From sequence record PQ850621.1: a DNA stretch of 43,746 nucleotides; one strand, written 5' to 3'. The stretch comes from Escherichia phage NicoleGrasset_Bas72. How positions within the stretch are numbered: position 1 is the stretch's first letter; each line of letters opens with the position of its first letter. A model generated the notes under the pieces. It had not been told where the DNA came from. It did no database searches and saw only the letters and a list, made by a program, of their open reading frames with translations. This document shows positions 1,823-14,105 of this stretch, piece after piece. The translations under genes were made by a program, and so were the position numbers.

Positions 1823-3304
1823 ATGTTAACTATGAACGGTCAGAATCAGGGTGTTAAGACAAAACACCGGGAATGGCTGCATCACTTCGATAAATGGCAG
1901 AAGGTACGCCACGCTCTTGAAGGCGACCTTATCCGCTATCTGCGCAACGTCGGGAAGAACGAGCCTGACCAGACCTACGCAGCACAGCGACAGGAAGAAT
2001 ACGAGAACGGCGCTATCTGCTACAATTTCACCAAACGCACGCTGGCGGGGATGACGGGGTCAGTGATGCGCAAAGACCCTGAGCAGATTATCCCGCCTGA
2101 ACTTGAGTACCTGTTGCACAACGCTGACGGTTCAGGTGTCGGGCTGTGGCAGCACGCGCAGGATACGCTGATGGAGATTAACTCGATAGGCCGTGGCGGG
2201 TTGCTGGTGGACGCCCCGGAAACAGCCGCAGCAACGGCGGCAGAGCAGAACGCGGGATTATTAAACCCGGTAATCGCATTCTATACCGCGGAGAACATTA
2301 TCAACTGGAGACTCACCCGCATCGGTTCAGTGAACCGCGTGACGATGGTTGTATTGCGTGAGGCATGGGAATACTCGGAACCAGGCGCTGAGTTTGAAAC
2401 AAAATTCGGCGAGCAATACCGCGTCCTTGACCTGATTGACGGTCGCTACCGCCAGCGCATCTACCGCTTCGATGCCGAAGGTGGCGCACAGGATGAAGTA
2501 ATCGAAATCTTCCCGGAACTCGGCGAACAGTTGCGCGGTAAAATCCCGTTCACGTTCATTGGCGCAAGCAACAACGACGCCACTATAGACGATGCGCCTT
2601 TACTGCCGTTATCTGAGCTAAATATAGGACACTTCAGAAATTCGGCCGATGTGGAAGAGGCCAGCTTTATAGTAGGTCAACCGACACTGTTCATTGCCCC
2701 CGGCGAGAACATGAGCATGGAGCAGTGGAAAGAAGCCAACCCACACGGCATACGCATGGGGTCGCGTTCAGGCCACAACATCGGCTCCGGCGGAAATGCG
2801 TTTCTGGTTCAGGCGGCGGAAACTAACCTCGCCAAACAGAACATGCTGGATAAAGAGAATCAGGCCATCCAGATTGGCGCGCAGCTTATCACCCCGACGC
2901 AGCAAATCACCGCGGAATCGGCCCGCCTGCAACGCGGCGCCGACACGTCAGTCATGGCAACAATAGCACGTAATGTAAGCATGGCGTATACCGATGCGTT
3001 GCGCTGGGTTGCGGGTATGCTTGGGCTTAGTGAAGATACTGAGATTGAGTTCAAGCTGAATATGGAATTCTTCCTGCAACCTATGACAGCTCAGGACCGC
3101 GCTCAGTGGATGGCGGATATTAACGCTGGCCTGCTACCCGCCACCGCTTACTATGCTGCGTTGCGCAAGGCAGGTGTGACTGACTGGACAGATGAGGACA
3201 TTCAGAACGCTATTGAAGACGCACCTCTGCCGTTGGGTTCTGTTGCTCAGGTAGCGGGAGAGATTCCGCAGTCGGCGCAGCAACAGGACACCACTCAGCA
3301 GTAA
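1823..3304 (+). CDS. portal protein
   Basis: 493 aa ORF immediately after terminase, AAGAGG SD; acidic Q-rich C-terminus; canonical gene order. Confidence 0.7.
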   Translation: MLTMNGQNQGVKTKHREWLHHFDKWQKVRHALEGDLIRYLRNVGKNEPDQTYAAQRQEEYENGAICYNFTKRTLAGMTGSVMRKDPEQIIPPELEYLLHNADGSGVGLWQHAQDTLMEINSIGRGGLLVDAPETAAATAAEQNAGLLNPVIAFYTAENIINWRLTRIGSVNRVTMVVLREAWEYSEPGAEFETKFGEQYRVLDLIDGRYRQRIYRFDAEGGAQDEVIEIFPELGEQLRGKIPFTFIGASNNDATIDDAPLLPLSELNIGHFRNSADVEEASFIVGQPTLFIAPGENMSMEQWKEANPHGIRMGSRSGHNIGSGGNAFLVQAAETNLAKQNMLDKENQAIQIGAQLITPTQQITAESARLQRGADTSVMATIARNVSMAYTDALRWVAGMLGLSEDTEIEFKLNMEFFLQPMTAQDRAQWMADINAGLLPATAYYAALRKAGVTDWTDEDIQNAIEDAPLPLGSVAQVAGEIPQSAQQQDTTQQ

Positions 3305-3340: not shown

Positions 3341-4417
3341 ATGCTATTAACTTTAGCGCCACAGGGTTTATCTATGAGCTTACTTACATCCCTAATCAGC
3401 CATCAGATATGGCTGCAACGCACCGCATCCGGTGAAGTGAAAGACCTCACGCCGTTCATTCAGGAGATAAGGGATGAAATCAAACGGCAGGTGCTGTTAT
3501 TCGGTGACGACGGTCGCAGCACTGCGCGACTGAATAAACTGTTACGCGACCTGGAAGAAGCACTAACCGGTATTACGGGTGACTGGCAAACAAAGCTAAC
3601 AGACGACCTTAAGGAACTGGCGGCGTACGAGGCTGAGTGGAACGTAAAGACACTGACCGCCAACGTAGACGCGGAATTTGTTACGCCTACCGCTGAGCAG
3701 GTATGGGCCGCTGCCGAGTTTCAACCATTATCATTGAGCGACAAGCCCGTTGATTTCACCAAGCTGATGTCTGGATGGGGCGAAACGGAAGTAGCACGTC
3801 TTGTAACTGGAGTTAAGATGGGCTTTGTGCAAGGTCAAACCACACGGCAGATTGTTAAGAATGTTGTTGGCGCTGGTGGACTAGCCGACATCTCAGAACG
3901 TAACGCGACTACGGTAATCCGCACCGCGCTGTCCCACGTATCCAACGAGGCCCGTAACGAGACGTACCGCCAGAACGACGACATCATCGAGAAGTACGAG
4001 TGGGTGTCAACGCTTGACAGCCGCACCAGTACGATTTGCAGGGTCAGAGACGGGATGACGTGGGAAATTGGTAAGGGGCCGATGCCCCCAGCCCATCCGA
4101 ACTGCCGGTCGTGCACGGCTCCGGTAATCAGTTCCGAGTTCGACTTCCTCGATAAAGGCGCAAAACGCGCGGCTAAAGGCGCGGAAGGTGGCACTCAGGT
4201 AAGCGCAGACACCACTTACTACGAGTTCCTTAAACAACAACCGGCGTGGTTTCAGGACCAGGCGCTCGGCCCGGTGCGAGGTAAGATTTTCCGTAACAGC
4301 GGTATATCGCCGGAAGAGTTTCGCGTAATATCTGTAGATGGTTTCGGGAATCCGCTCACGCTTAAGCAGATGGCGGAACTCGATAAACGTGTTGCTGATT
4401 ATCTGAAAGGGGAATAA
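3341..4417 (+). CDS. head morphogenesis protein (Mu F / SPP1 gp7-like)
   Basis: 358 aa ORF after portal; canonical position; family assignment from memory of this module, not from a search. Confidence 0.6.
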   Translation: MLLTLAPQGLSMSLLTSLISHQIWLQRTASGEVKDLTPFIQEIRDEIKRQVLLFGDDGRSTARLNKLLRDLEEALTGITGDWQTKLTDDLKELAAYEAEWNVKTLTANVDAEFVTPTAEQVWAAAEFQPLSLSDKPVDFTKLMSGWGETEVARLVTGVKMGFVQGQTTRQIVKNVVGAGGLADISERNATTVIRTALSHVSNEARNETYRQNDDIIEKYEWVSTLDSRTSTICRVRDGMTWEIGKGPMPPAHPNCRSCTAPVISSEFDFLDKGAKRAAKGAEGGTQVSADTTYYEFLKQQPAWFQDQALGPVRGKIFRNSGISPEEFRVISVDGFGNPLTLKQMAELDKRVADYLKGE

Positions 4418-4878
4418 TGATGGGCTTTTTCAAAGTAACTGACGTACCGTCTCGTCGCGTAGTCCAGTACGCCCGCGTGTCTGGCTCTGGCGAGAACGTG
4501 GTATTTATTGAGGACGAAAGTGTACTCGGTACACCGGTAGATGATATGCCGTTTGCAGATAAAACCGGTATTGCGTTGCCCGCCGCCGGTATGCTTTATG
4601 AAATTCCGTATCTGGCGGACGCTGGCGACGTGTATTTCTCTGCGCAACCGCAGGACGCTGAACTGGCGGGCGGCAGCGCAACCATCACTGTCGAGGTTAA
4701 GGCAGGCAAAGCGCCGTATTCTCTGACCTGGTACAAAGACGGTAAGGAAGTGGTGAATGCGCCTGAGGAGGCTCTGTCTCTGACGGTTAATGCGGTCGGC
4801 GAATACTTCGTTAAAGTTACTGATGCCGATGGAGTAGAGGCGGTAAGCAAAGCGGCGAAGGTTACTAAGCCAGAATGA
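4417..4878 (+). CDS. Ig-like domain protein (head-associated)
   Basis: ATGA overlap with upstream gene; C-terminal segment PYSLTWYKDGKEV...GEYFVKVTDADG resembles Ig-like (Big/I-set) fold and is paralogous to 8190-8540. Confidence 0.55.
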   Translation: MMGFFKVTDVPSRRVVQYARVSGSGENVVFIEDESVLGTPVDDMPFADKTGIALPAAGMLYEIPYLADAGDVYFSAQPQDAELAGGSATITVEVKAGKAPYSLTWYKDGKEVVNAPEEALSLTVNAVGEYFVKVTDADGVEAVSKAAKVTKPE

Positions 4879-4880
4879 TA

Positions 4881-4909
4881 AAAGGCCCCATTATGGGGCC
4901 TTAGTTTTC
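4881..4909. terminator. rho-independent terminator, likely bidirectional
   Basis: AGGCCCCA tta TGGGGCCT then TAGTTTT; A-run on the other side; between convergent genes. Confidence 0.6.
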
Positions 4910-5111
4910 AACGGAATCTTGTGTTTAAATCCTGCTCATGGACAACCCTCAGAACAGTGTCATAATCCCCGTATCTTCCAGGTTCAAATATATCTAATGC
5001 CTTGTAAGCAGACATTGCGTCAGGGAAAACCTGCAGAACCTTTTTAACCCGGCACAAGTCACCGTCGAACTCTTCATCGAACTCTTGAACTACTTCGCAA
5101 ATTGCATACAT
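4908..5111 (-). CDS. hypothetical protein, 67 aa, acidic
   Basis: ATG with AGGAGGTG SD; sits between bidirectional terminator 4881-4909 and minus-strand promoter 5139-5167. Confidence 0.5.
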   Translation of the reverse strand: MYAICEVVQEFDEEFDGDLCRVKKVLQVFPDAMSAYKALDIFEPGRYGDYDTVLRVVHEQDLNTRFR

Positions 5112-5138
5112 TTTTCACCTCCTGTTTAAGTTAACTGA

Positions 5139-5167
5139 ATAGTACCCTATTATATTGGGGTGTGCAA
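5139..5167 (-). promoter_or_regulatory. promoter, TTGCAC-N17-TACTAT family
   Basis: On minus strand: TTGCAC, 17-nt spacer accccaatataataggg, TACTAT; drives 4908-5111. Confidence 0.55.
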
Positions 5168-5242
5168 ACTATTTATTTACGTATTCCATTTATTCCACTA
5201 AATTGTAAATATTGGAATAAACTATTCGAATAGTTGACTTTT

Positions 5243-5271
5243 CACTGAAAATGTGCTAAGCTCCACCTGAG
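5243..5271 (+). promoter_or_regulatory. promoter candidate TTGACT-N17-TAAGCT overlapped by a 16-bp palindrome
   Basis: -35 TTGACT at 5243-5248, -10 TAAGCT at 5266-5271; palindrome AACTATTCGAATAGTT at 5229-5244 overlaps the -35. Confidence 0.35.
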
Positions 5272-5439
5272 CTTGTGAAGTATGAACAAGCGACCGCGGC
5301 GCGGGCAGGTAACGGAGCGGGACGTAAGTCCTGAGTGTAGTTACGCTGACGCGTTCGGAAGGGCCATACTCTATTGCTTGTGTAAAAAGTAACAGGTTTA
5401 CTTAGATTACGCCGTTTCTATGTTTAAATGATAAGGACT

Positions 5440-5470
5440 AGCGCCCTGCTTTAAGGCAGGGCTTTACTTA
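5440..5470 (+). terminator. terminator-like hairpin upstream of the spanin genes
   Basis: GCCCTGC tttaag GCAGGGC then TTTACTTA. Confidence 0.4.
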
Positions 5471-5486
5471 TCGAGAAAGGAGAAAC

Positions 5487-5873
5487 ATGAATCTTAAAGC
5501 AACTGTCGTAGCGGGAGCATGTTTCATCATCCTGGCTTACACACACGGCATCTACCAGTACCGCATCGGCTGGAACGAAGGCCGGGCGAATCTCGTTTCT
5601 CAGCAACAGCAGAAAGCACAGGCCGAGATGACTAAGAAAACACAACGGCAGCAGCAGGACGAATCAAAGGCCGCAGCCGCTGACAACGAAGGCAAGACGA
5701 AATCAGAGGTGATCACCCGTGAAGTCGTTAAGTACATTAAAACGCCTGGTCGCAGCGGGTGCACTTTTGACCCTGAGCGCGTGCAGCTCAAGTCCCGCGC
5801 CGTCGCAAACGCTAATTCCATTACCGGATACGACGATGATGCAGCCTCCGTGCAAACTGGCAGCGCCAAGTAG
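5487..5873 (+). CDS. putative i-spanin (Rz-like)
   Basis: AAGGAG SD; N-terminal TM segment ATVVAGACFIILAYTHGIY followed by Q/K/E-rich coiled-coil-like periplasmic region; contains an embedded lipoprotein ORF in another frame. Confidence 0.6.
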   Translation: MNLKATVVAGACFIILAYTHGIYQYRIGWNEGRANLVSQQQQKAQAEMTKKTQRQQQDESKAAAADNEGKTKSEVITREVVKYIKTPGRSGCTFDPERVQLKSRAVANANSITGYDDDAASVQTGSAK

Positions 5874-5982
5874 CGATGCTGACGAGGATTTGGCTATAGA
5901 CGTTCAGAACGCCGAATGCGTGCGGCAACTGCGTCTGAAAGTATTCCAGTTGCAGGATTATGTGAGGAATATTCTGGAATAG
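5719..5982 (+). CDS. putative o-spanin (Rz1-like outer-membrane lipoprotein), GTG start
   Basis: Signal peptide with lipobox LSAC (MKSLSTLKRLVAAGALLTLSAC), Pro-rich mature region; starts inside 5487-5873 in a different frame and extends past it. Confidence 0.55.
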   Translation: MKSLSTLKRLVAAGALLTLSACSSSPAPSQTLIPLPDTTMMQPPCKLAAPSSDADEDLAIDVQNAECVRQLRLKVFQLQDYVRNILE

Positions 5983-6064
5983 TTGCCTTGCATGTTGGAA
6001 TAATTTATTCTTGACATGTAAATCCGGGTGGCCCGGGTTCCAACGTCCAGGGGACATACTGACT

Positions 6065-6766
6065 ATGAATCGTTTTTTACGTTATCCGTTCCAGGAAGAA
6101 GCTGGGGCAGAAGATAAAGCTGGTGGCGGTGACGCGCCGAAAATGTTCACCGCTGAAGAAGTTCAGGCGCTGATTGAGAAAGAAGTTGCCGGGCTTAAGG
6201 CTAATCAGGAAGCATTGTTGGCGGAGAAGAAAGAAGCCGCTCGCAAAGCAAAAGAGGCCGAAGAAGAACGGCAGCGCGCGCACCAGGAGGCGTTAAAAGC
6301 CGCTGGTAAGATGGATGAGTTCGAAAAGACGATTCGTAGCCAGTATGACCCGGTGTTAGCCGAGAAAGACGGTCGCATCTCCAGAATGGCAGAGCGTATC
6401 CTCGGCAGCGAACGTAAAGCGGTGCTAGGCTCTTTCGCGGGTGACTTTATTACCCCAGAAGCAGTGGACATTCTTGCGCCGTTCGTTAAGACTGAGTTCG
6501 AAGGCGATGATGTGGTTACTAAGTTTGTTGGTGCAGACGGTAACGTAATCACGACTGACCCGGAACAGTTCCGCAAATACCTGCGCGAACACAAGGCGTT
6601 TTCGCATTTGATCAAAGCAAATGCAGCTTCCGGCGGCGGGGCTTCCGGTAGCAAAGGCGGCGGGGCCGCACCAGCGTTTAAAGACATGAGTGAAGCAGAG
6701 CGTTTAGCCCTGTATAAATCGAACCCTGCCGAATTTGAACGGCAACTTAAAGCCCTGAGGAAATAA
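6065..6766 (+). CDS. putative capsid scaffolding protein
   Basis: A/E/K-rich helical sequence (EALLAEKKEAARKAKEAEEERQRAHQEALKAAGK) directly upstream of major capsid gene; first in-frame ATG is at 6065. Confidence 0.6.
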   Translation: MNRFLRYPFQEEAGAEDKAGGGDAPKMFTAEEVQALIEKEVAGLKANQEALLAEKKEAARKAKEAEEERQRAHQEALKAAGKMDEFEKTIRSQYDPVLAEKDGRISRMAERILGSERKAVLGSFAGDFITPEAVDILAPFVKTEFEGDDVVTKFVGADGNVITTDPEQFRKYLREHKAFSHLIKANAASGGGASGSKGGGAAPAFKDMSEAERLALYKSNPAEFERQLKALRK

Positions 6767-6768
6767 TA

Positions 6769-7818
6769 ATGGCAATTACCACTATCGGCGATATCGTAAC
6801 TGGCAACATCCCGGTCCTGGCGTCTTATATGACCGAGGACCCGGTAGAAAAAACCGCGTTCTTCCAGTCTGGTATTCTGACCCCGACCCCATACGCCGCC
6901 GAGATTGCCCGCGGCCCGTCCAACGTCGCTAATATTCCTTTCTGGAAAGCGATTGATACCTCTATCGAGCCGAACTACTCGAACGACGTATACCAGGACA
7001 TCGCCACCCCGCGTAACGTGCAGACCGGCGAGATGATGGCCCGCGTTGCATACCTGAACGAAGGTTTCGGTCAGGCGGATTTGACTGTCGAACTGACCAG
7101 CCAGAACCCGCTGCAATCCGTAGCGTCCCGTCTGGATAACTTCTGGCAGCGCCAGGCACAACGCCGTCTGATTGCTACCGCGCTCGGTCTGTACAACGAC
7201 AACGTAGCTGCTACCGATGCTTACCACGAGCAGAACGACATGGTTATCGACGTGTCTGCTACTCTGGGCTTCGATGTGGGCGCGTTCATCGACGCTACCC
7301 AGACTATGGGCGATGCTCTGATGGGCAACGGCGGTGAAGTGCTGGGGGCTATCGCGATGCATAGCTTCGTTTATGCGCAGGCACGTAAGCAGCAGCTTAT
7401 CGACTTCATCCGTGACGCGGACAACAACACCATGTTCGCCACCTACCAGGGCTACCGCGTGATTGTTGACGACAGCATGACCGTAGTCGGCACTGGCCCG
7501 ACCCGTAAGTTCATCTCCATCATCTTCGGCAACGGCGCTATCGGTTACGGTGAAGGTTCTCCGTCCAACCCGCTGGAATACGAGCGCGAAGCGTCCCGCG
7601 GCAACGGCGGCGGCGTTGAAACCCTGTGGACCCGTAAGACCTGGTTGCTACATCCGTTTGGTTACAGCTTCACCAGCGCAGTAATCACCGGTAACGGCAC
7701 CGAGACTGTCGCACGTTCTGCTTCCTGGCAGGACCTGGCGAACGCCTCTAACTGGAGCCGTGTTGTTGACCGTAAGCACGTACCGATTGCCTTCCTGGTA
7801 ACTGGTGTCGGTGCTTAA
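6769..7818 (+). CDS. major capsid protein
   Basis: 349 aa ORF with AGGAA SD after scaffold gene; followed by strong terminator 7834-7863, typical of a highly expressed capsid gene. Confidence 0.7.
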   Translation: MAITTIGDIVTGNIPVLASYMTEDPVEKTAFFQSGILTPTPYAAEIARGPSNVANIPFWKAIDTSIEPNYSNDVYQDIATPRNVQTGEMMARVAYLNEGFGQADLTVELTSQNPLQSVASRLDNFWQRQAQRRLIATALGLYNDNVAATDAYHEQNDMVIDVSATLGFDVGAFIDATQTMGDALMGNGGEVLGAIAMHSFVYAQARKQQLIDFIRDADNNTMFATYQGYRVIVDDSMTVVGTGPTRKFISIIFGNGAIGYGEGSPSNPLEYEREASRGNGGGVETLWTRKTWLLHPFGYSFTSAVITGNGTETVARSASWQDLANASNWSRVVDRKHVPIAFLVTGVGA

Positions 7819-7833
7819 GGTTAAGCTATAATC

Positions 7834-7863
7834 GAGAGGGACTTCGGTCCCTCTTTTCATTTA
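7834..7863 (+). terminator. rho-independent terminator after major capsid gene
   Basis: AGAGGGAC ttcg GTCCCTCT then TTTTCATTT. Confidence 0.7.
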
Positions 7864-7877
7864 CTAAGAGGTAAATT

Positions 7878-8177
7878 ATGGTCAAGACCGGAAAAGGCTT
7901 GCCGCGCAGCCTTCAGAATGTCGATTTCGGCGACTTTGATATCCCAGTCGCGCCTGCTACTACCAGCGTAGTTGGTGGGGTTAAAAAGTCAGCTACTGTA
8001 GCCGCACCTGCGGCGGTTACCGCTGGTAAAGGAGCGCAGTCCGCCGCGGCACCGACTAAGGGAGAGTTCGACGCCCTTGTAGCGGAGTACAACAAACTCC
8101 GAACCGATGTTACCGCGCTGCGCACTACCGTAGCAAATCTGTTGACTGCGCTTAAAAACGCAGGAACCGTAAGCTAA
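7878..8177 (+). CDS. hypothetical Ala-rich head-module protein
   Basis: AAGAGG SD; 99 aa; Ala/Thr/Val-rich with C-terminal helical segment. Confidence 0.55.
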   Translation: MVKTGKGLPRSLQNVDFGDFDIPVAPATTSVVGGVKKSATVAAPAAVTAGKGAQSAAAPTKGEFDALVAEYNKLRTDVTALRTTVANLLTALKNAGTVS

Positions 8178-8189
8178 AGGAGCTTAAAA

Positions 8190-8540
8190 ATGGTTGATGT
8201 AATCAAACGTCGTATTACCGGTGTTTCTGATGATTCTCCTGCCGATGGTCAGGTTGAAATCGATATGGCGAATATCTCGCCAGCGTCTTTTTCTACCGCG
8301 CTTGCGGCTACCACCGCAGTTACGGTGGGGCAGACTATGACTCTTACCGTAGTGGTAACTGGCGGTCTGGAGCCGTATTCCTACCAGTGGTACAAAGATA
8401 ACAACGCCATCGACGGAGCCACCGCAGCTACCTATGCGAAGGCGTCCACTACTACCGCAGATTCAGGCACGTATAAAGTGGTTGTTCACGATGTGTATGG
8501 TAATATTATCTCCAGCAGCACCGTAGCAACTGTGTCTTAA
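8190..8540 (+). CDS. Ig-like domain protein
   Basis: AAGGAG SD; segment PYSYQWYKDNNAIDGATAATY...SGTYKVVVHDVYG matches Ig-like pattern; paralog of 4417-4878. Confidence 0.6.
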   Translation: MVDVIKRRITGVSDDSPADGQVEIDMANISPASFSTALAATTAVTVGQTMTLTVVVTGGLEPYSYQWYKDNNAIDGATAATYAKASTTTADSGTYKVVVHDVYGNIISSSTVATVS

Positions 8541-8576
8541 TACAACGGCCCTTCGGGGCCGTAATAAGGAAAGGTC

Positions 8577-8759: not shown

Positions 8760-9272
8760 ATGCCGCTAATCGTGGAAACTGGGGTGATCGTCCCAAATGC
8801 CGACAGTTACATTAGTCTGGCTGACGCCCGCGCGTTAGCGGCTAATTATGGCCTTGAGCTGCCGGAAGACGATACCGCAGCAGAGGTGGCCTTACGCAAC
8901 GGTGCTACTTATGTAGGGCTTGCAGAACCGCAGATGTGCGGTCGTCGAGTATCCGCCGAACAGTCTCTTGCATACCCCCGCACCGGCGTTACGTTAAACG
9001 GGTTCCCGGTGGTCAACAACGCCATTCCGAAACAGGTGATTCTTGCGCAGGTAATCGCTGCCGCTACATATGGCGAGGGCACCGAAGTCCGGGCTAACTC
9101 AGACGGTCGCGCCGTGCAGACTGAGCGTGTCGAGGGTGCAGTAACAGTGACCTACTTCAACAATGGCAACAGTGGCGCTACGACCGCGATTACCGCTGCT
9201 GACGACGCTTTACGCCCGTTATTGTGTGGCGGTCTTAACAATGGTTTCTCGTTTAACGTGTACCGGGGTTAA
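8760..9272 (+). CDS. head-tail connector / head completion protein (putative)
   Basis: 170 aa ORF in head-to-tail junction position; tightly packed with neighbours. Confidence 0.5.
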   Translation: MPLIVETGVIVPNADSYISLADARALAANYGLELPEDDTAAEVALRNGATYVGLAEPQMCGRRVSAEQSLAYPRTGVTLNGFPVVNNAIPKQVILAQVIAAATYGEGTEVRANSDGRAVQTERVEGAVTVTYFNNGNSGATTAITAADDALRPLLCGGLNNGFSFNVYRG

Positions 9273-9274
9273 AA

Positions 9275-9889
9275 ATGGCGAAGACTAAATCAGAGATATT
9301 CACGCTAATCGGTTCCGAGCTACCGGACAACACGACCGGACTTATTACGCCTGCGAAGTTGCGCGGGGTATTAACCCAGATGGCTGACTCACCTATTTAC
9401 GCCACTCCGGGTGTTAAAGAGGTTGAAGTTCTCCGCGCTGCGTCGACAGTAGCGCAAGCGCCTACCGCAGTAGATACGGCGTTGCAGGTATCGTTCGGCT
9501 CTGCTCAGGGTAGTGCATCTGACCCGGTAATGATTAATGCTGCGGGGCTGGTTACATTCAACACCGCGGGTAACTATGCCGTTCGCATCAAGTTACAGGC
9601 CGGTCGCTCCGGCGCTAGCGGAACGTCTATCCTGTTGTCGCGTATCCTCATTAACGGCGCTCAGTACGGCTCACCAGCAGCTACGAAACTTGTTAGCTCG
9701 GAAACCACCATCCCTATTGAATCCCGTGTAGTGATTAACCCAACCGCCGGGCAAACATTCGCCGTTCAGATTATGCGAGATAGCGCCGGGACTAACTTCG
9801 GAGGCGTATACCCGCAGGTGGCTACTGTAACTGCATGGGGCACGGCACCGTCCGCGCTACTGGTTATTTCGAGACTGGAGGCTGCCTGA
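9275..9889 (+). CDS. structural protein (head-tail joining region)
   Basis: 204 aa ORF, 2-nt gap from upstream gene, co-oriented structural operon. Confidence 0.5.
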   Translation: MAKTKSEIFTLIGSELPDNTTGLITPAKLRGVLTQMADSPIYATPGVKEVEVLRAASTVAQAPTAVDTALQVSFGSAQGSASDPVMINAAGLVTFNTAGNYAVRIKLQAGRSGASGTSILLSRILINGAQYGSPAATKLVSSETTIPIESRVVINPTAGQTFAVQIMRDSAGTNFGGVYPQVATVTAWGTAPSALLVISRLEAA

Positions 9890-10745: not shown

Positions 10746-11158
10746 TGGGCTACTTTGAGGACTTAACAAAAGCGTTCGATGTTCCGCTGGTAGCCTTCGG
10801 AACCGCCAACGGCATCAAGGTTGCGCTTGAAAACATCGACGCGCCGACGTCAACCGATACGCCGTATCTGGCGAGTTACATGCTACTGGCAGATACCGAG
10901 CAGGCGGATTTGTTCTTCACTGAGCAACGCTCTGGTATTTATCAGGTAGACATTAACTACGCATCGGTGAAAGGTAGCGCGCCAATCAATAAAATGGCAG
11001 ACTTACTTAACACGGCGTTTAAAGCAGGTAAGTCATTTTCGCGTAACGACATCTGCGCCGAGGTTCAATCGGTTAGCCTGGGGCCGCTGATTGTAGAAAA
11101 CGGATGGGCCAAACGACCATTGTCAATTAACTTTATTGCATTCACCAAGAGGCTGTGA
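10745..11158 (+). CDS. structural protein (tail region)
   Basis: 1-nt overlap with upstream stop; 137 aa. Confidence 0.5.
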   Translation: MGYFEDLTKAFDVPLVAFGTANGIKVALENIDAPTSTDTPYLASYMLLADTEQADLFFTEQRSGIYQVDINYASVKGSAPINKMADLLNTAFKAGKSFSRNDICAEVQSVSLGPLIVENGWAKRPLSINFIAFTKRL

Positions 11159-12327
11159 ATATGGCTACAACTCCTTTTAAGGGCGCGAATACCGCGCAAT
11201 TCTATGTGGCGGAAACTACCCCTGGCGTAACACCGACTAACCCGGTATGGTCGCCGTTGCGTAACACGGGCGGCGTTCCCGCTGTAACCCGCGATGCACT
11301 GACTTCCAACGAACTGGACGGCAGCCGTGAAACTACATCCATCCGAACCGGTAACAAGCAGGTTAGCGGGGAGTATGCCATCGAACTTAGCTCTCGTAGC
11401 CAGGATGATTTCCTTGCGGGAGCGATGACTTCTACGTGGCAAGCTGGGGTAGAGATTACTGGCGCCGAAATTACGGTCGCCCCAGCAGGTAAAACATTCA
11501 CCCGCGCTGCCGGTAGCTTCATTACTGACGGTGTAGAAGTTGGCGACCTTATTGCGTTCACCGACTTAACCGGCGACAACGCAAAACCGTTTATCGTGAC
11601 CGCGGTTTCCGCTCTGGTAGTTACGGGCGCAGGTATTCAGCACACGCTGACAGCAGAGACAGTAACCACTGACGCAAAAACTGGCGACAAGCTGGAAACC
11701 GGTAACGCGTGTAAGACGTTCTCCATCCTGACGTGGTTCAAGGGCCAGTGTGGTAACCCGGACGCGTACATGCTGACCAAAGGTGTGGAAATCTCTGGCT
11801 TTACCGTAGAGCAGGCGGTTAACGCCATGGTCACCGGCAGCTTCCCGTTCATCGGCCTGAGTCAGGAGATTCTTACCGCGCCGCCGTCTGGCTCTGATTT
11901 CTCTCAGGTTACGTTCACCGATGAGCCGTTCTCGTCGGTAGATGTGTCGGTGTTCGATGGCTCCACGCCGTTGCGTTGCGATACTCTCACCATCACCAAC
12001 GACAACGGAGCTTCCGCGCAGTTCGAACTCGGTAACAGTAGCGTGGCGTTCGTCGAACGTGGACGCGCAGCTAACACATTCTCTATCTCTGGCAAGCTGT
12101 ACGACATGGCGATGATTCAGAAGTTTATCAACGAGCAGCAGGTAGAGATTAACTCTATTCTGGCAGGGGTAAACGGGGCTATGTCTTTCAGTTTGAAACG
12201 CGCAGAGCTTACGGCGGTTACACCTGAGATTGGTGGGCCTGAGTCAATCACTCAGTCCATTGAAGGCCAGGCTACCGGCAATCAGTACCAGTCGTCTATC
12301 GTAATTCAACGTATCACCTACGCATAA
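11155..12327 (+). CDS. putative major tail protein
   Basis: 390 aa ORF upstream of chaperone/tape-measure genes; followed by strong terminator at 12329-12356. Confidence 0.45.
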   Translation: MNMATTPFKGANTAQFYVAETTPGVTPTNPVWSPLRNTGGVPAVTRDALTSNELDGSRETTSIRTGNKQVSGEYAIELSSRSQDDFLAGAMTSTWQAGVEITGAEITVAPAGKTFTRAAGSFITDGVEVGDLIAFTDLTGDNAKPFIVTAVSALVVTGAGIQHTLTAETVTTDAKTGDKLETGNACKTFSILTWFKGQCGNPDAYMLTKGVEISGFTVEQAVNAMVTGSFPFIGLSQEILTAPPSGSDFSQVTFTDEPFSSVDVSVFDGSTPLRCDTLTITNDNGASAQFELGNSSVAFVERGRAANTFSISGKLYDMAMIQKFINEQQVEINSILAGVNGAMSFSLKRAELTAVTPEIGGPESITQSIEGQATGNQYQSSIVIQRITYA

Positions 12328-12328
12328 A

Positions 12329-12356
12329 ACTAAGGCCCCTTTCGGGGCCTTTTTCT
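12329..12356. terminator. bidirectional rho-independent terminator
   Basis: AGGCCCC tttc GGGGCCT then TTTTT; convergent genes on both sides. Confidence 0.75.
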
Positions 12357-12586
12357 CACTCATCAATATTACTTCGATACTCCCGTAACTTCTCCAGACT
12401 TTCAATTGCTTCTGCTAAGTCGGTTCCGGTGTCCTTATGCCCGCGAAGACCCATGCACAATAACTTCTTCAATGCGTGCTGTAGTGCGGGGTCACGGATG
12501 TCGAAGGCACGGAGAACATCGTAAACGTCTACGGTCATAGTGCTGCCGTGAGTGTTTGTCATTGTTCGGTTGTATTTTGAAGTCAT
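12356..12586 (-). CDS. hypothetical protein (76 aa)
   Basis: Last gene of minus-strand cassette; start overlaps stop of 12583-13713. Confidence 0.45.
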   Translation of the reverse strand: MTSKYNRTMTNTHGSTMTVDVYDVLRAFDIRDPALQHALKKLLCMGLRGHKDTGTDLAEAIESLEKLREYRSNIDE

Positions 12587-13713
12587 CCCAGCATCTCCGG
12601 TGAAATAGTTAAACGTGCGACCTCGCCATATTCGGCGCTATAAGTAATTACATTTGCACTACGGCCTGACATCCACCCGCCGCGGGAGGCATAGGCGTCT
12701 TTAGCCGCTAAGGTGCGGTGTTGCTCAACAATCATGTTACGGCTTTCTACAATCTTCTGGTGGTGCAGGTGGCCTACGTGGGCGTAGCTATAGACACTCT
12801 CACCGAACGCTTTGCGGAATTTGGCAATCATAACCGGTTCGATAGCATCGAATCGCGCCTTATGCCCGTGGTGAAAGAACAACGTCGTTTTTCCGTGTTG
12901 CACCATCTTGTAAACATCCGGCGACGTATCGACAATCACTCGGCTGTCGTTCGAATATAAAACTGTGAACATTTCAGCCAGCCATACAGAGCCTACAGGG
13001 TCATGGTTCCCCTGTACGATAAGCAAGCGAACATTTTTATGTTTAACCAGTGCCATATCTACAACACGGCGTACCATACGAATCATGTAGCGGACGAGTT
13101 TCTGGTAGCGAGTGTCTGCGTCCAACACGTGACGCGACTCAGGTGTAACGGCATCCAGACTATCGAAGTGCGCGAAATCACCCAGCAGGTTAATAACTCC
13201 TGTTCCTGCATCCGGTGCTTTCTGAAACGCCGCGTCGAACCAACGAGAGAACAGGTCTTCCGCAATCTTTATATCCCAGTCGTCGCCGCTCTCGTCGGCC
13301 CAGGCAAGCATACCGAGATGGAAATCAGATACCGTGTAAAGATTGAGTAGCTTGTCGTCGCGTTTGGCTCGAGTCGCTTTAGCCGGCGCAACTGGCGTAA
13401 TCTCTGACTTCATGCCTTCAATCACGGCTTTCATCAACTCGACCTGACGTTCAGCGTCGGTGTCTGTCTTAACCCATTGCAACTTAGTATTGCCGAACTC
13501 GTCTACCAGAGACGACGTCCCTTTAATCTTGTAGCCGTCTGGGACAAGGTGGCTAACGTCACGCCCGTGGCCTACACCTTTCTTAGCCAGCTTCGCTTTA
13601 CGGATACGAATAACTCGGTCTGAGATGCCGTATTTACGGGCGATGTCTACATTCTTCATCCCGGCGTTCAATTCTTCCTGTAACTGTTCGTCGGTTATTT
13701 TCTTCTGGGCCAT
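12583..13713 (-). CDS. HTH domain fused to calcineurin-like metallophosphoesterase
   Basis: Metallophosphoesterase motifs visible in order: SDFHLG (D-x-H), GDFAHFD (GD), GNHD, HHGH, GHLHH; N-terminal HTH-like segment VDIARKYGISDRVIRIRKAKL. Confidence 0.7.
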   Translation of the reverse strand: MAQKKITDEQLQEELNAGMKNVDIARKYGISDRVIRIRKAKLAKKGVGHGRDVSHLVPDGYKIKGTSSLVDEFGNTKLQWVKTDTDAERQVELMKAVIEGMKSEITPVAPAKATRAKRDDKLLNLYTVSDFHLGMLAWADESGDDWDIKIAEDLFSRWFDAAFQKAPDAGTGVINLLGDFAHFDSLDAVTPESRHVLDADTRYQKLVRYMIRMVRRVVDMALVKHKNVRLLIVQGNHDPVGSVWLAEMFTVLYSNDSRVIVDTSPDVYKMVQHGKTTLFFHHGHKARFDAIEPVMIAKFRKAFGESVYSYAHVGHLHHQKIVESRNMIVEQHRTLAAKDAYASRGGWMSGRSANVITYSAEYGEVARLTISPEMLG

Positions 13714-13778
13714 GCTTACTTCCTCGTGTTTAGGATTTGTCCTATTTAACCACAGTGGATTCCTTTAAATAAAGGCAA

Positions 13779-14105
13779 CTATTTACTTTCTGCGCCTATC
13801 GCCCACCCTGTCATTACCATTTGCAGACGGGTGGCTGTCAGTAGGCTATAGAAAGCATCTCCGTTTTTCTCTACCGAACGTATCACTGTGTAGGTTACGG
13901 CCTGCGGGGGTAGGCCCGATTTACCAACCTCCACGGCGGCCTCACACTCGCGAACTGTAGAGTCCTTGAACGCCTTTACAATAGTAGGGTCGGCTTTATC
14001 AAGCACACCAGAAGTCATAAGAACAGATTCACTAAATACCTGTTCGCACGGGGCTCCAAAAGTAGCAAAAGACATAAACCCCAGAGCTAATACTAATTTA
14101 CGCAT
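13779..14105 (-). CDS. small secreted protein (signal peptide)
   Basis: N-terminus MRKLVLALGFMSFATFGA is a signal-peptide-like n/h/c region; first gene downstream of promoter 14134-14162. Confidence 0.55.
   Translation of the reverse strand: MRKLVLALGFMSFATFGAPCEQVFSESVLMTSGVLDKADPTIVKAFKDSTVRECEAAVEVGKSGLPPQAVTYTVIRSVEKNGDAFYSLLTATRLQMVMTGWAIGAESK

Follow-up and report, generated by a model that had tools for sequence, protein, structure and literature searches.

The genome of Escherichia phage NicoleGrasset_Bas72 (sequence record PQ850621.1; 43,746 nucleotides, referred to here over its full length as the window) carries two plus-strand genes in its head module, gene A (positions 4417–4878, 153 amino acids) and gene B (8190–8540, 116 amino acids), each encoding a small protein with an immunoglobulin (Ig)-like domain at its C-terminus. 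The window is assigned to the Kagunavirus-type siphoviruses of the subfamily Guernseyvirinae because the 6-kb region around both genes shares 96–97% identity with the Escherichia phages SHAK7858 and Bas73 (GertrudWoker) and nearly all of the 484 phage records matching it are from Kagunavirus or Jerseyvirus. Both genes are already known as annotation, and the case is in this respect ordinary. Their PHROG families, phrog_3945 for gene A (E 1e-85) and phrog_4069 for gene B (E 5.9e-60), are both labelled "Hoc-like head decoration." The GenBank/RefSeq entries of Bas73, SETP7 and FSL SP-031 name both genes "Hoc-like head decoration protein," and the Ent1 record of 2012 lists gp06 as "putative head decoration protein," gp11 as "putative head fibre protein" and gp12 as "putative Hoc protein." The Hoc-like and head-decoration labels are predictions. 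The annotated orthologues (Ent1 gp06/gp12, SETP7 gp06/gp13, and Bas73_0005/0013) are the same genes in the same order as in the window, with no material difference, and those of Jerseyvirus and Cornellvirus share 54–82% identity with the window proteins, depending on the domain. Among the matches listed, gene A homologues are up to 95% identical; within Kagunavirus, the match of the Ig-like domain reaches 100% identity, for A in Bas71 and 590B and for B in 22664BS2.

Gene A follows the gene of a Mu-F/SPP1 gp7-like head morphogenesis (minor head) protein (3341–4417, plus strand; Pfam Phage_Mu_F, 47.9 bits; phrog_241), an orthologue of which was detected in virions of phage Eta by mass spectrometry. 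The TAA stop codon of the Mu-F-like gene overlaps the ATG of gene A (TAATG) with a GGGGA just upstream, an arrangement that positions gene A for translational coupling. A second ATG at 4420 offers an alternative start and a product of 152 amino acids. Protein A comprises an N-terminal domain (amino acids 1–75; 4417–4641), which is predicted to be beta-rich, is lineage-specific and is proposed here as a modular anchor, and an Ig-like domain (amino acids ~76–150; 4642–4866) with the motifs PYSLTWYKD and GEYFVKVTD. Directly after the gene, a GC-rich terminator-like hairpin (GGCCCC-loop-GGGGCC; 4882–4902) ends the block of small terminase (terS), large terminase (terL), portal, Mu-F-like and A genes. 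Its T-run was scored on the minus strand in the terminator scan, and terminators are annotated at the equivalent position in Ent1 and Eta.

Gene B lies downstream of the gene for an SPP1 gp13-like major capsid protein (6769–7818, plus strand; PDB 4an5, E 1e-42; phrog_247), which is the proposed partner of B and of a 99-aa "head fibre" encoded in between (7878–8177, plus strand; phrog_4366, E 3.5e-41). The head fibre consists of an N-terminal segment, an Ala/Pro-rich linker and a heptad-like C-terminal stretch, apparently a coiled coil, and weakly matches the C-terminal end of Pfam Phage_head_fibr; it may be the partner of B or a separate decoration. A plus-strand terminator-like hairpin with a T-run (7834–7855) separates the capsid gene from the fibre and B genes, where a terminator is annotated in Ent1, and may lower the expression of fibre and B relative to the capsid protein. 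Protein B begins with a segment that has no predicted secondary structure (amino acids 1–35; 8190–8294), the proposed anchoring peptide, followed by an Ig-like domain (amino acids ~36–116; 8295–8537) with the motifs PYSYQWYKD and GTYKVVVHD. After the gene, a 6-bp GC hairpin with a TTCG loop and no T-run (8546–8561, plus strand), at which Ent1 has an annotated terminator, could be a weak terminator or an RNA-stability element. Fusion of either Ig domain to an upstream structural protein by frameshifting or read-through was considered and rejected, as gene B is preceded by an AGGAG ribosome-binding site of its own, 12 nt past the fibre stop codon, and gene A has its own ATG with GGGGA upstream.

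The sequence-only reading of the window had described a C-terminal Ig-like pattern common to both genes, and this is borne out by the two plus-strand open reading frames (ORFs) and by significant profile and pairwise matches between their products. In the six-frame translation of the window (521 ORFs, 45,520 amino acids), there are exactly two instances of PYS..WYKD and two of G.Y.V.V.D, one of each in A and one of each in B, in the same order. BLASTP aligned residues 85–139 of A with residues 47–104 of B at 38% identity over 58 amino acids (E 8e-7), and hhalign of the two family alignments, of 22 sequences each, gave a probability of 96.5% (E 8e-10) over the Ig part only. The Ig-domain hidden Markov model (HMM) of each family matches the other ORF at E 2–4e-8, the next best of the 521 ORFs having E > 1, and the Smith-Waterman alignment of the two domains reaches a z-score of about 10 against shuffles. 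By these measures the similarity of the domains is far beyond chance. Searched with the same HMMs, the six-frame ORFs of the window contain no third copy of the domain. A further Ig domain on the major tail tube protein (11155–12327; phrog_290) was rejected, as this protein matches Pfam Phage_tube_2 only. The tail tube protein is without the C-terminal Ig-like part of the phrog_290 profile (positions ~327–403); B matches that part of the profile, so that the same Ig type is present on the tail tubes of relatives.

The assignment to the Ig-like fold is correct for both C-terminal domains. Pfam Ig_3 matches B with 32.0 bits, above the cut-off of 30. Protein A stays below every Pfam Ig cut-off (best Ig_3, 22.8 against 30; BiPBP_C, 24.5 against 26.8) and is counted as Ig-like because the hhalign probability and the reciprocal HMM matches tie it to the family of B. 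AlphaFold2 models of A and B have a mean predicted local distance difference test score (pLDDT) of 69, their beta-sandwiches being confident and their N-termini not. The sandwich of A has 6–7 predicted strands (residues ~76–150, pLDDT 74–91) and that of B has five (residues ~49–115, pLDDT 73–89). In Foldseek searches of the PDB, both models matched the Ig-like capsid decoration proteins of N4 (9e99) and Moo19 (9d7z), and the C-terminal domain of T5 pb10 (5lxk) and eukaryotic I-set domains were matched as well, all with a probability of 1.00. A single-Ig match, 3bfo_A, gave a target-normalised template-modelling score of 0.76–0.77 at a root-mean-square deviation (rmsd) of 2.3–2.5 Å, and the matches among predicted viral structures were named Hoc, outer capsid, decorating and tail proteins. 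Both proteins contain the Ig core signature of a Trp in strand C and a Tyr-x-hydrophobic pattern in strand F (D-x-G-x-Y), here WYKD with (D)SGTYKV or VGEYFV, and in neither family alignment do these residues vary. The two domains lack the canonical disulphide cysteines, as phage Ig-like domains usually do.

The N-terminal parts, conversely, share no similarity: an HMM of the A N-terminal domain ranked the N-terminus of B 1496th of 1993 against shuffles. A search of 1.84 billion representative proteins with the A domain of 72–75 residues gave about 10 clusters regarded as genuine; two repeat proteins recovered in this search (P0248 and P0250) were judged spurious on inspection. The A domain has no sequence similarity to the capsid-binding domains of pb10, Hoc or gp20/Hex-Dec, and a domain homologous to any of these was found in neither A nor B, whose PDB matches are confined to the Ig domains. 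A fold assignment of the A N-terminal domain was dropped because the confidence of its model is too low; the two-domain Foldseek alignments, with an rmsd of 13–17 Å, carry no meaning beyond the Ig part. In the model of B, residues 1–13 have a pLDDT below 50 and no secondary structure is seen before residue ~32. Across genera, the N-terminal domain of A is 71–79% identical as against 54–67% for its Ig part, and the N-terminal segment of B is 79–82% identical as against 68% for its Ig part; the capsid protein is 92–94% identical across the same genera. The higher conservation of the N-terminal part in both proteins is as expected if a conserved anchor bears a display domain that is exposed and evolves faster.

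A few homologues of A depart from this architecture. One (P0048) has an N-terminal part of Kagunavirus type, is of Jerseyvirus type in the second half of its Ig domain and looks recombinant, another (P0252) is without residues ~33–66 of the N-terminal domain, and a third (P0242) continues from the N-terminal domain into an unrelated Cys-rich tail and may be a chimera or a frameshift.

The two genes differ in what they are inherited with. Three relatives, phiEap-2, Eta and Otaku, keep the backbone of the head module and carry a very different capsid protein. In phiEap-2, identity to the window is 76% for the portal, 74% for the Mu-F-like protein, 79% for the A N-terminal domain and 73% for the adaptor as opposed to 26% for the capsid protein; the corresponding values are 62, 64, 57, 63 and 37% in Eta and 74, 63, 63, 68 and 27% in Otaku. 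Gene A lies directly after the Mu-F-like gene in all three, and unrelated proteins, or none, stand in place of the head fibre and B. HMM searches found no B-type protein in the complete genomes of phiEap-2 and Eta, and none in the 13-kb head region of Otaku, the sole part searched; a head fibre was found nowhere in the phiEap-2 genome. The backbone can thus do without B and the fibre when it carries another capsid protein. Among phage records, the capsid protein is present at 80% identity or more in 461, a number close to the 458 in which tblastn finds B; the A N-terminal domain is found by tblastn in 488. By these distributions, B and the head fibre are co-inherited with this type of capsid protein, as would be expected if they were lattice decorations fitted to its surface, and A goes with the portal, Mu-F-like and neck genes whatever the type of capsid protein. 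The exchange of the scaffold-capsid cassette lies within otherwise collinear Guernseyvirinae-like backbones (L006 8397–9365 and, in phiEap-2, L007 9549–10517, compared with 6769–7818 in the window), where the capsid protein of 322 aa is 26–27% identical to the 349-aa protein of the window and the scaffold is still 56% identical.

In phiEap-2, the A orthologue is directly followed by gp23 (189 aa; L007 6950–7519), the first 77 residues of which are homologous to the A N-terminal domain (37.3 bits, the best of 2000 shuffles reaching 13.2; phrog_3945 positions 2–87 at E 6e-8). The C-terminal domain of gp23 (~110 residues) differs from that of A and belongs to phrog_18016. Because gp23 pairs an A-type N-terminal domain with a different C-terminal domain, the A domain appears to behave as a reusable anchor module.

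The best explanation overall, to which a probability of about one half is given, is that A and B are separate small virion accessory proteins of Kagunavirus, each bearing one I-set-type Ig domain on a different N-terminal anchor. We infer presence in the virion, binding sites on it and an adhesive function for both. B would be a minimal decoration of the capsid lattice of the Hoc/pb10/Hex-Dec type, in which the conserved, unstructured N-terminal peptide of ~35 residues docks on the SPP1-like major capsid protein or on the 99-aa head fibre and the Ig domain is directed outward. In A, the beta-rich N-terminal domain of 72 residues would be a modular anchor whose site is probably a conserved component of the same backbone (portal, Mu-F-like protein, adaptor or neck) and not the outer capsid surface, because its binding site appears to be independent of the capsid-protein type. 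By analogy with T4 Hoc and T5 pb10, the exposed Ig domains could provide weak, non-essential adhesion to glycans or surfaces, and they are probably dispensable for assembly. The more specific claim on A is tentative, namely that A is not a capsid-lattice decoration and instead displays its Ig domain on a small anchor module restricted to its lineage; the anchor would dock on a conserved component near the portal or at the neck and could carry other display domains, as it does in gp23 of phiEap-2. The sequence-only reading had taken the Ig-like domains for decoration or adhesion modules on the capsid. As generic surface modules of this kind they fit, the genes lying among head genes; a site on the capsid lattice is plausible for B and doubtful for A, which is kept where the capsid protein is replaced. 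For A, the label "Hoc-like head decoration" is insecure and probably claims more than is known.

Comparison with characterized decoration proteins shows how far the analogy reaches. In Sf14 gp20, Bas63 Hex-Dec and T5 pb10, the capsid-binding domain is N-terminal, the Ig part is C-terminal, and the proteins sit at hexamer centres (PMC12609058, PMC11821841, PMC5292684). The Ounavirinae proteins Bas63 Hex-Dec (PDB 9NCF chain S, 9ncf_S) and Sf14 gp20 (9C2D chain S, 9c2d_S; chain identities from PMC12609058 and PMC11821841) have the closest solved Ig domains to that of B (E 1.9e-34 and 1.1e-31). They differ from B in having 3–4 Ig repeats and a helical capsid-binding domain of ~118 residues on T=9 myovirus capsids, as opposed to one Ig domain and a short peptide, and they are only distantly similar to A (scores 32–62). 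A role in adhesion or environmental sensing has been proposed for both (PMC12609058, PMC11821841). T5 pb10 (PDB 5lxk, 8zvi) is likewise a small siphovirus protein with an N-terminal capsid-binding part and a single exposed C-terminal Ig domain, and it gives some capsid protection in extreme conditions (PMC5292684). Its sequence matches the Ig domain of B at E 1e-12 (8zvi_a, 5lxk_A) and that of A weakly, at E 0.003–0.007. However, the pb10 anchor is alpha-helical and placed at hexamer centres, whereas the A anchor is predicted to be beta-rich and is unrelated, and B has only its ~35-residue peptide, predicted to be unstructured. T4 Hoc (RB49 Hoc, PDB 3shs), from which the "Hoc-like" label derives, is an outer capsid protein that carries Ig-like domains and is dispensable; an adhesive role has been proposed for it. 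In contrast to A and B, it has three Ig-like domains and the reversed order, with the Ig part N-terminal and the capsid-binding part C-terminal. Its sequence match to B is marginal (E 0.027), none to A is among the matches listed, and it is not an orthologue.

Several points weigh against the explanation of A and B as separate accessory proteins with different anchors. The AlphaFold2 confidence of the A N-terminal domain is low (pLDDT 41–66), and its comparison with known capsid-binding domains is accordingly one of sequence. The 35-residue N-terminus of B is much shorter than known capsid-binding domains, which measure 118 aa in Sf14 gp20 and 76 aa in pb10. The case for co-variation is built on three lineages with an exchanged capsid gene, and ordinary modular recombination may account for part of it. 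An anchor for a generic HK97-fold feature could tolerate divergent capsid proteins, and low-complexity masking may have reduced the number of records in which tblastn finds B. The literature search found no proteomic, microscopic or genetic evidence locating A or B, and no proteome or structure of any Guernseyvirinae head; the subfamily has been described as structurally uncharacterised (PMC13243795). The virion proteome of phage Eta, the sole relevant one found, covered only bands of at least 38 kDa, and STGO-35-1 and selz were rejected as proteome sources since they are unrelated phages. A PDB search yielded no Guernseyvirinae capsid, the best match to the capsid protein being SPP1 gp13.

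Alternatively, A and B might both decorate the capsid lattice at two different capsomer sites, for example the hexamer centres and another. This is unlikely on balance and yet the strongest of the alternatives, as both PHROG families bear the decoration label, both genes lie among head genes, both models match the N4 and Moo19 capsid decoration proteins, and the layout of A, an N-terminal non-Ig domain followed by one Ig domain, resembles that of pb10. It fits poorly, however, with the retention of A at 57–79% identity of its N-terminal domain where the capsid protein is only 26–37% identical and fibre and B are lost, with the lack of sequence similarity between this domain and the capsid-binding domains of pb10, Hoc or gp20, and with the linkage and possible translational coupling of A to the Mu-F-like gene and not to the capsid gene. 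It is considerably less probable that one or both proteins are not virion components and act, for example, as an assembly helper, as an internal or ejected protein together with the Mu-F-like protein, or as an accessory in the infected cell. In favor of such a role, the literature search gave no direct virion evidence for either protein, A shares a transcript with the packaging and portal genes, the spanin genes lying between it and the capsid gene, and the Mu-F-like protein, which was found in Eta virions, belongs in SPP1-type phages to the minor or internal proteins of the head. Against it, every characterised phage case met (T5 pb10, Sf14 gp20, Bas63 Hex-Dec, and the N4 decoration proteins) has Ig-like domains of this class exposed on the virion surface, and more than 450 genomes retain both genes in their structural module.

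The sequence-only reading had also called A and B paralogous. At the level of the domain superfamily this holds, the Ig domains being homologous. As a description of the proteins it is not fair, because B is closer to the Ig repeats of other phages than to A and the non-Ig parts are unrelated. The Ig domain of B aligns locally to the repeats of Sf14 gp20 and Bas63 Hex-Dec with scores of 115–165 (41–53% identity) and to A with 80, and five other PHROG families match B better than the family of A does. In the same small comparison set, the best scores of A are 80 with B and 79 with a titin I-set domain, and A is a more diverged member of the same Ig class. When the Ig domains were used as tblastn queries, nearly all matches were orthologues, probably through low-complexity masking, and PDB repeats and PHROG scores were used for neighbours outside the subfamily. 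The two copies are not each other's closest relatives, as would be expected of recent intragenomic paralogues, and on this comparison A and B are not recent paralogues. A recent duplication in this phage lineage with redundant roles is therefore the least probable explanation of all, despite the common motifs, the significant domain alignment and the place of B as the best phage match of A in that set, since B is about twice as similar to the Ounavirinae repeats as to A, five PHROG families match it better than that of A, the N-terminal parts are unrelated and the distributions differ, A occurring without B in phiEap-2, Eta and Otaku. Domain shuffling, as also suggested by the sequence-only reading, is a fair description of one domain found in two genes with unrelated N-terminal parts. 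Its presence in two genes, which that reading had called unusual, is not so for this group, given that the pair and its gene order are conserved in all three Guernseyvirinae genera and in record numbers as large as those given above.

The remaining gene order places terS (1–549), terL (539–1810) and the portal gene (1823–3304) upstream of the Mu-F-like gene and A. Gene A is followed by a small minus-strand ORF, and between the divergent transcription units lies a stretch of ~370 bases without a convincing gene (5112–5486), which contains a terminator-like hairpin (5443–5462) and has no Rfam match; an Rfam scan of the whole window gave none either. In Bas73, a 36-aa ORF is annotated in the equivalent stretch. 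An Rz/Rz1 spanin pair follows in the middle of the head module (5487–5982), comprising an Rz-like i-spanin (5487–5873) and an embedded or overlapping Rz1-like lipoprotein o-spanin (5719/5839–5982). The placement of the spanin genes between the portal-MuF-A block and the scaffold-capsid genes, the scaffold gene extending up to 6766, is conserved in SETP7, FSL SP-031 and phiEap-2, and Eta has its whole lysis cassette there. Downstream of gene B, a 59-aa ORF precedes the gene of the head-tail adaptor (8760–9272; "Ad1" in PHROG and GenBank), which matches Pfam PF20557, "DnaT_2, putative DnaT-like ssDNA binding protein," at E 2e-51; the Pfam name appears to be misapplied to a family of phage adaptors. 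A 204-aa protein encoded between the adaptor and Neck1 genes (9275–9889; phrog_3614, function unknown) has weak, sub-cut-off matches to BclA_C (C1q-like) and to the podophage GP4 fibre gp80, and its conservation is 71–76% even where the capsid protein has been exchanged. The protein could be a neck fibre and is one possible site at which A docks. After the tail tube gene, a minus-strand island (12356–14105) that includes a gene for a 376-aa DNA-repair exonuclease-like protein interrupts the plus-strand tail module.

These results change little in the general picture, Ig-like domains being common on phage structural proteins and both genes being annotated as decoration proteins in hundreds of genomes. 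Dispensable small surface proteins and their mode of anchoring would nonetheless offer display sites for engineering, and Kagunaviruses are used as small engineering chassis (PMC11990801). If the portal-proximal or neck site of A is true, the virions of Guernseyvirinae would show Ig-like domains at two structurally independent sites, and the ~72 residues of its anchor could serve as a "plug-in" for phage display whatever the capsid type.

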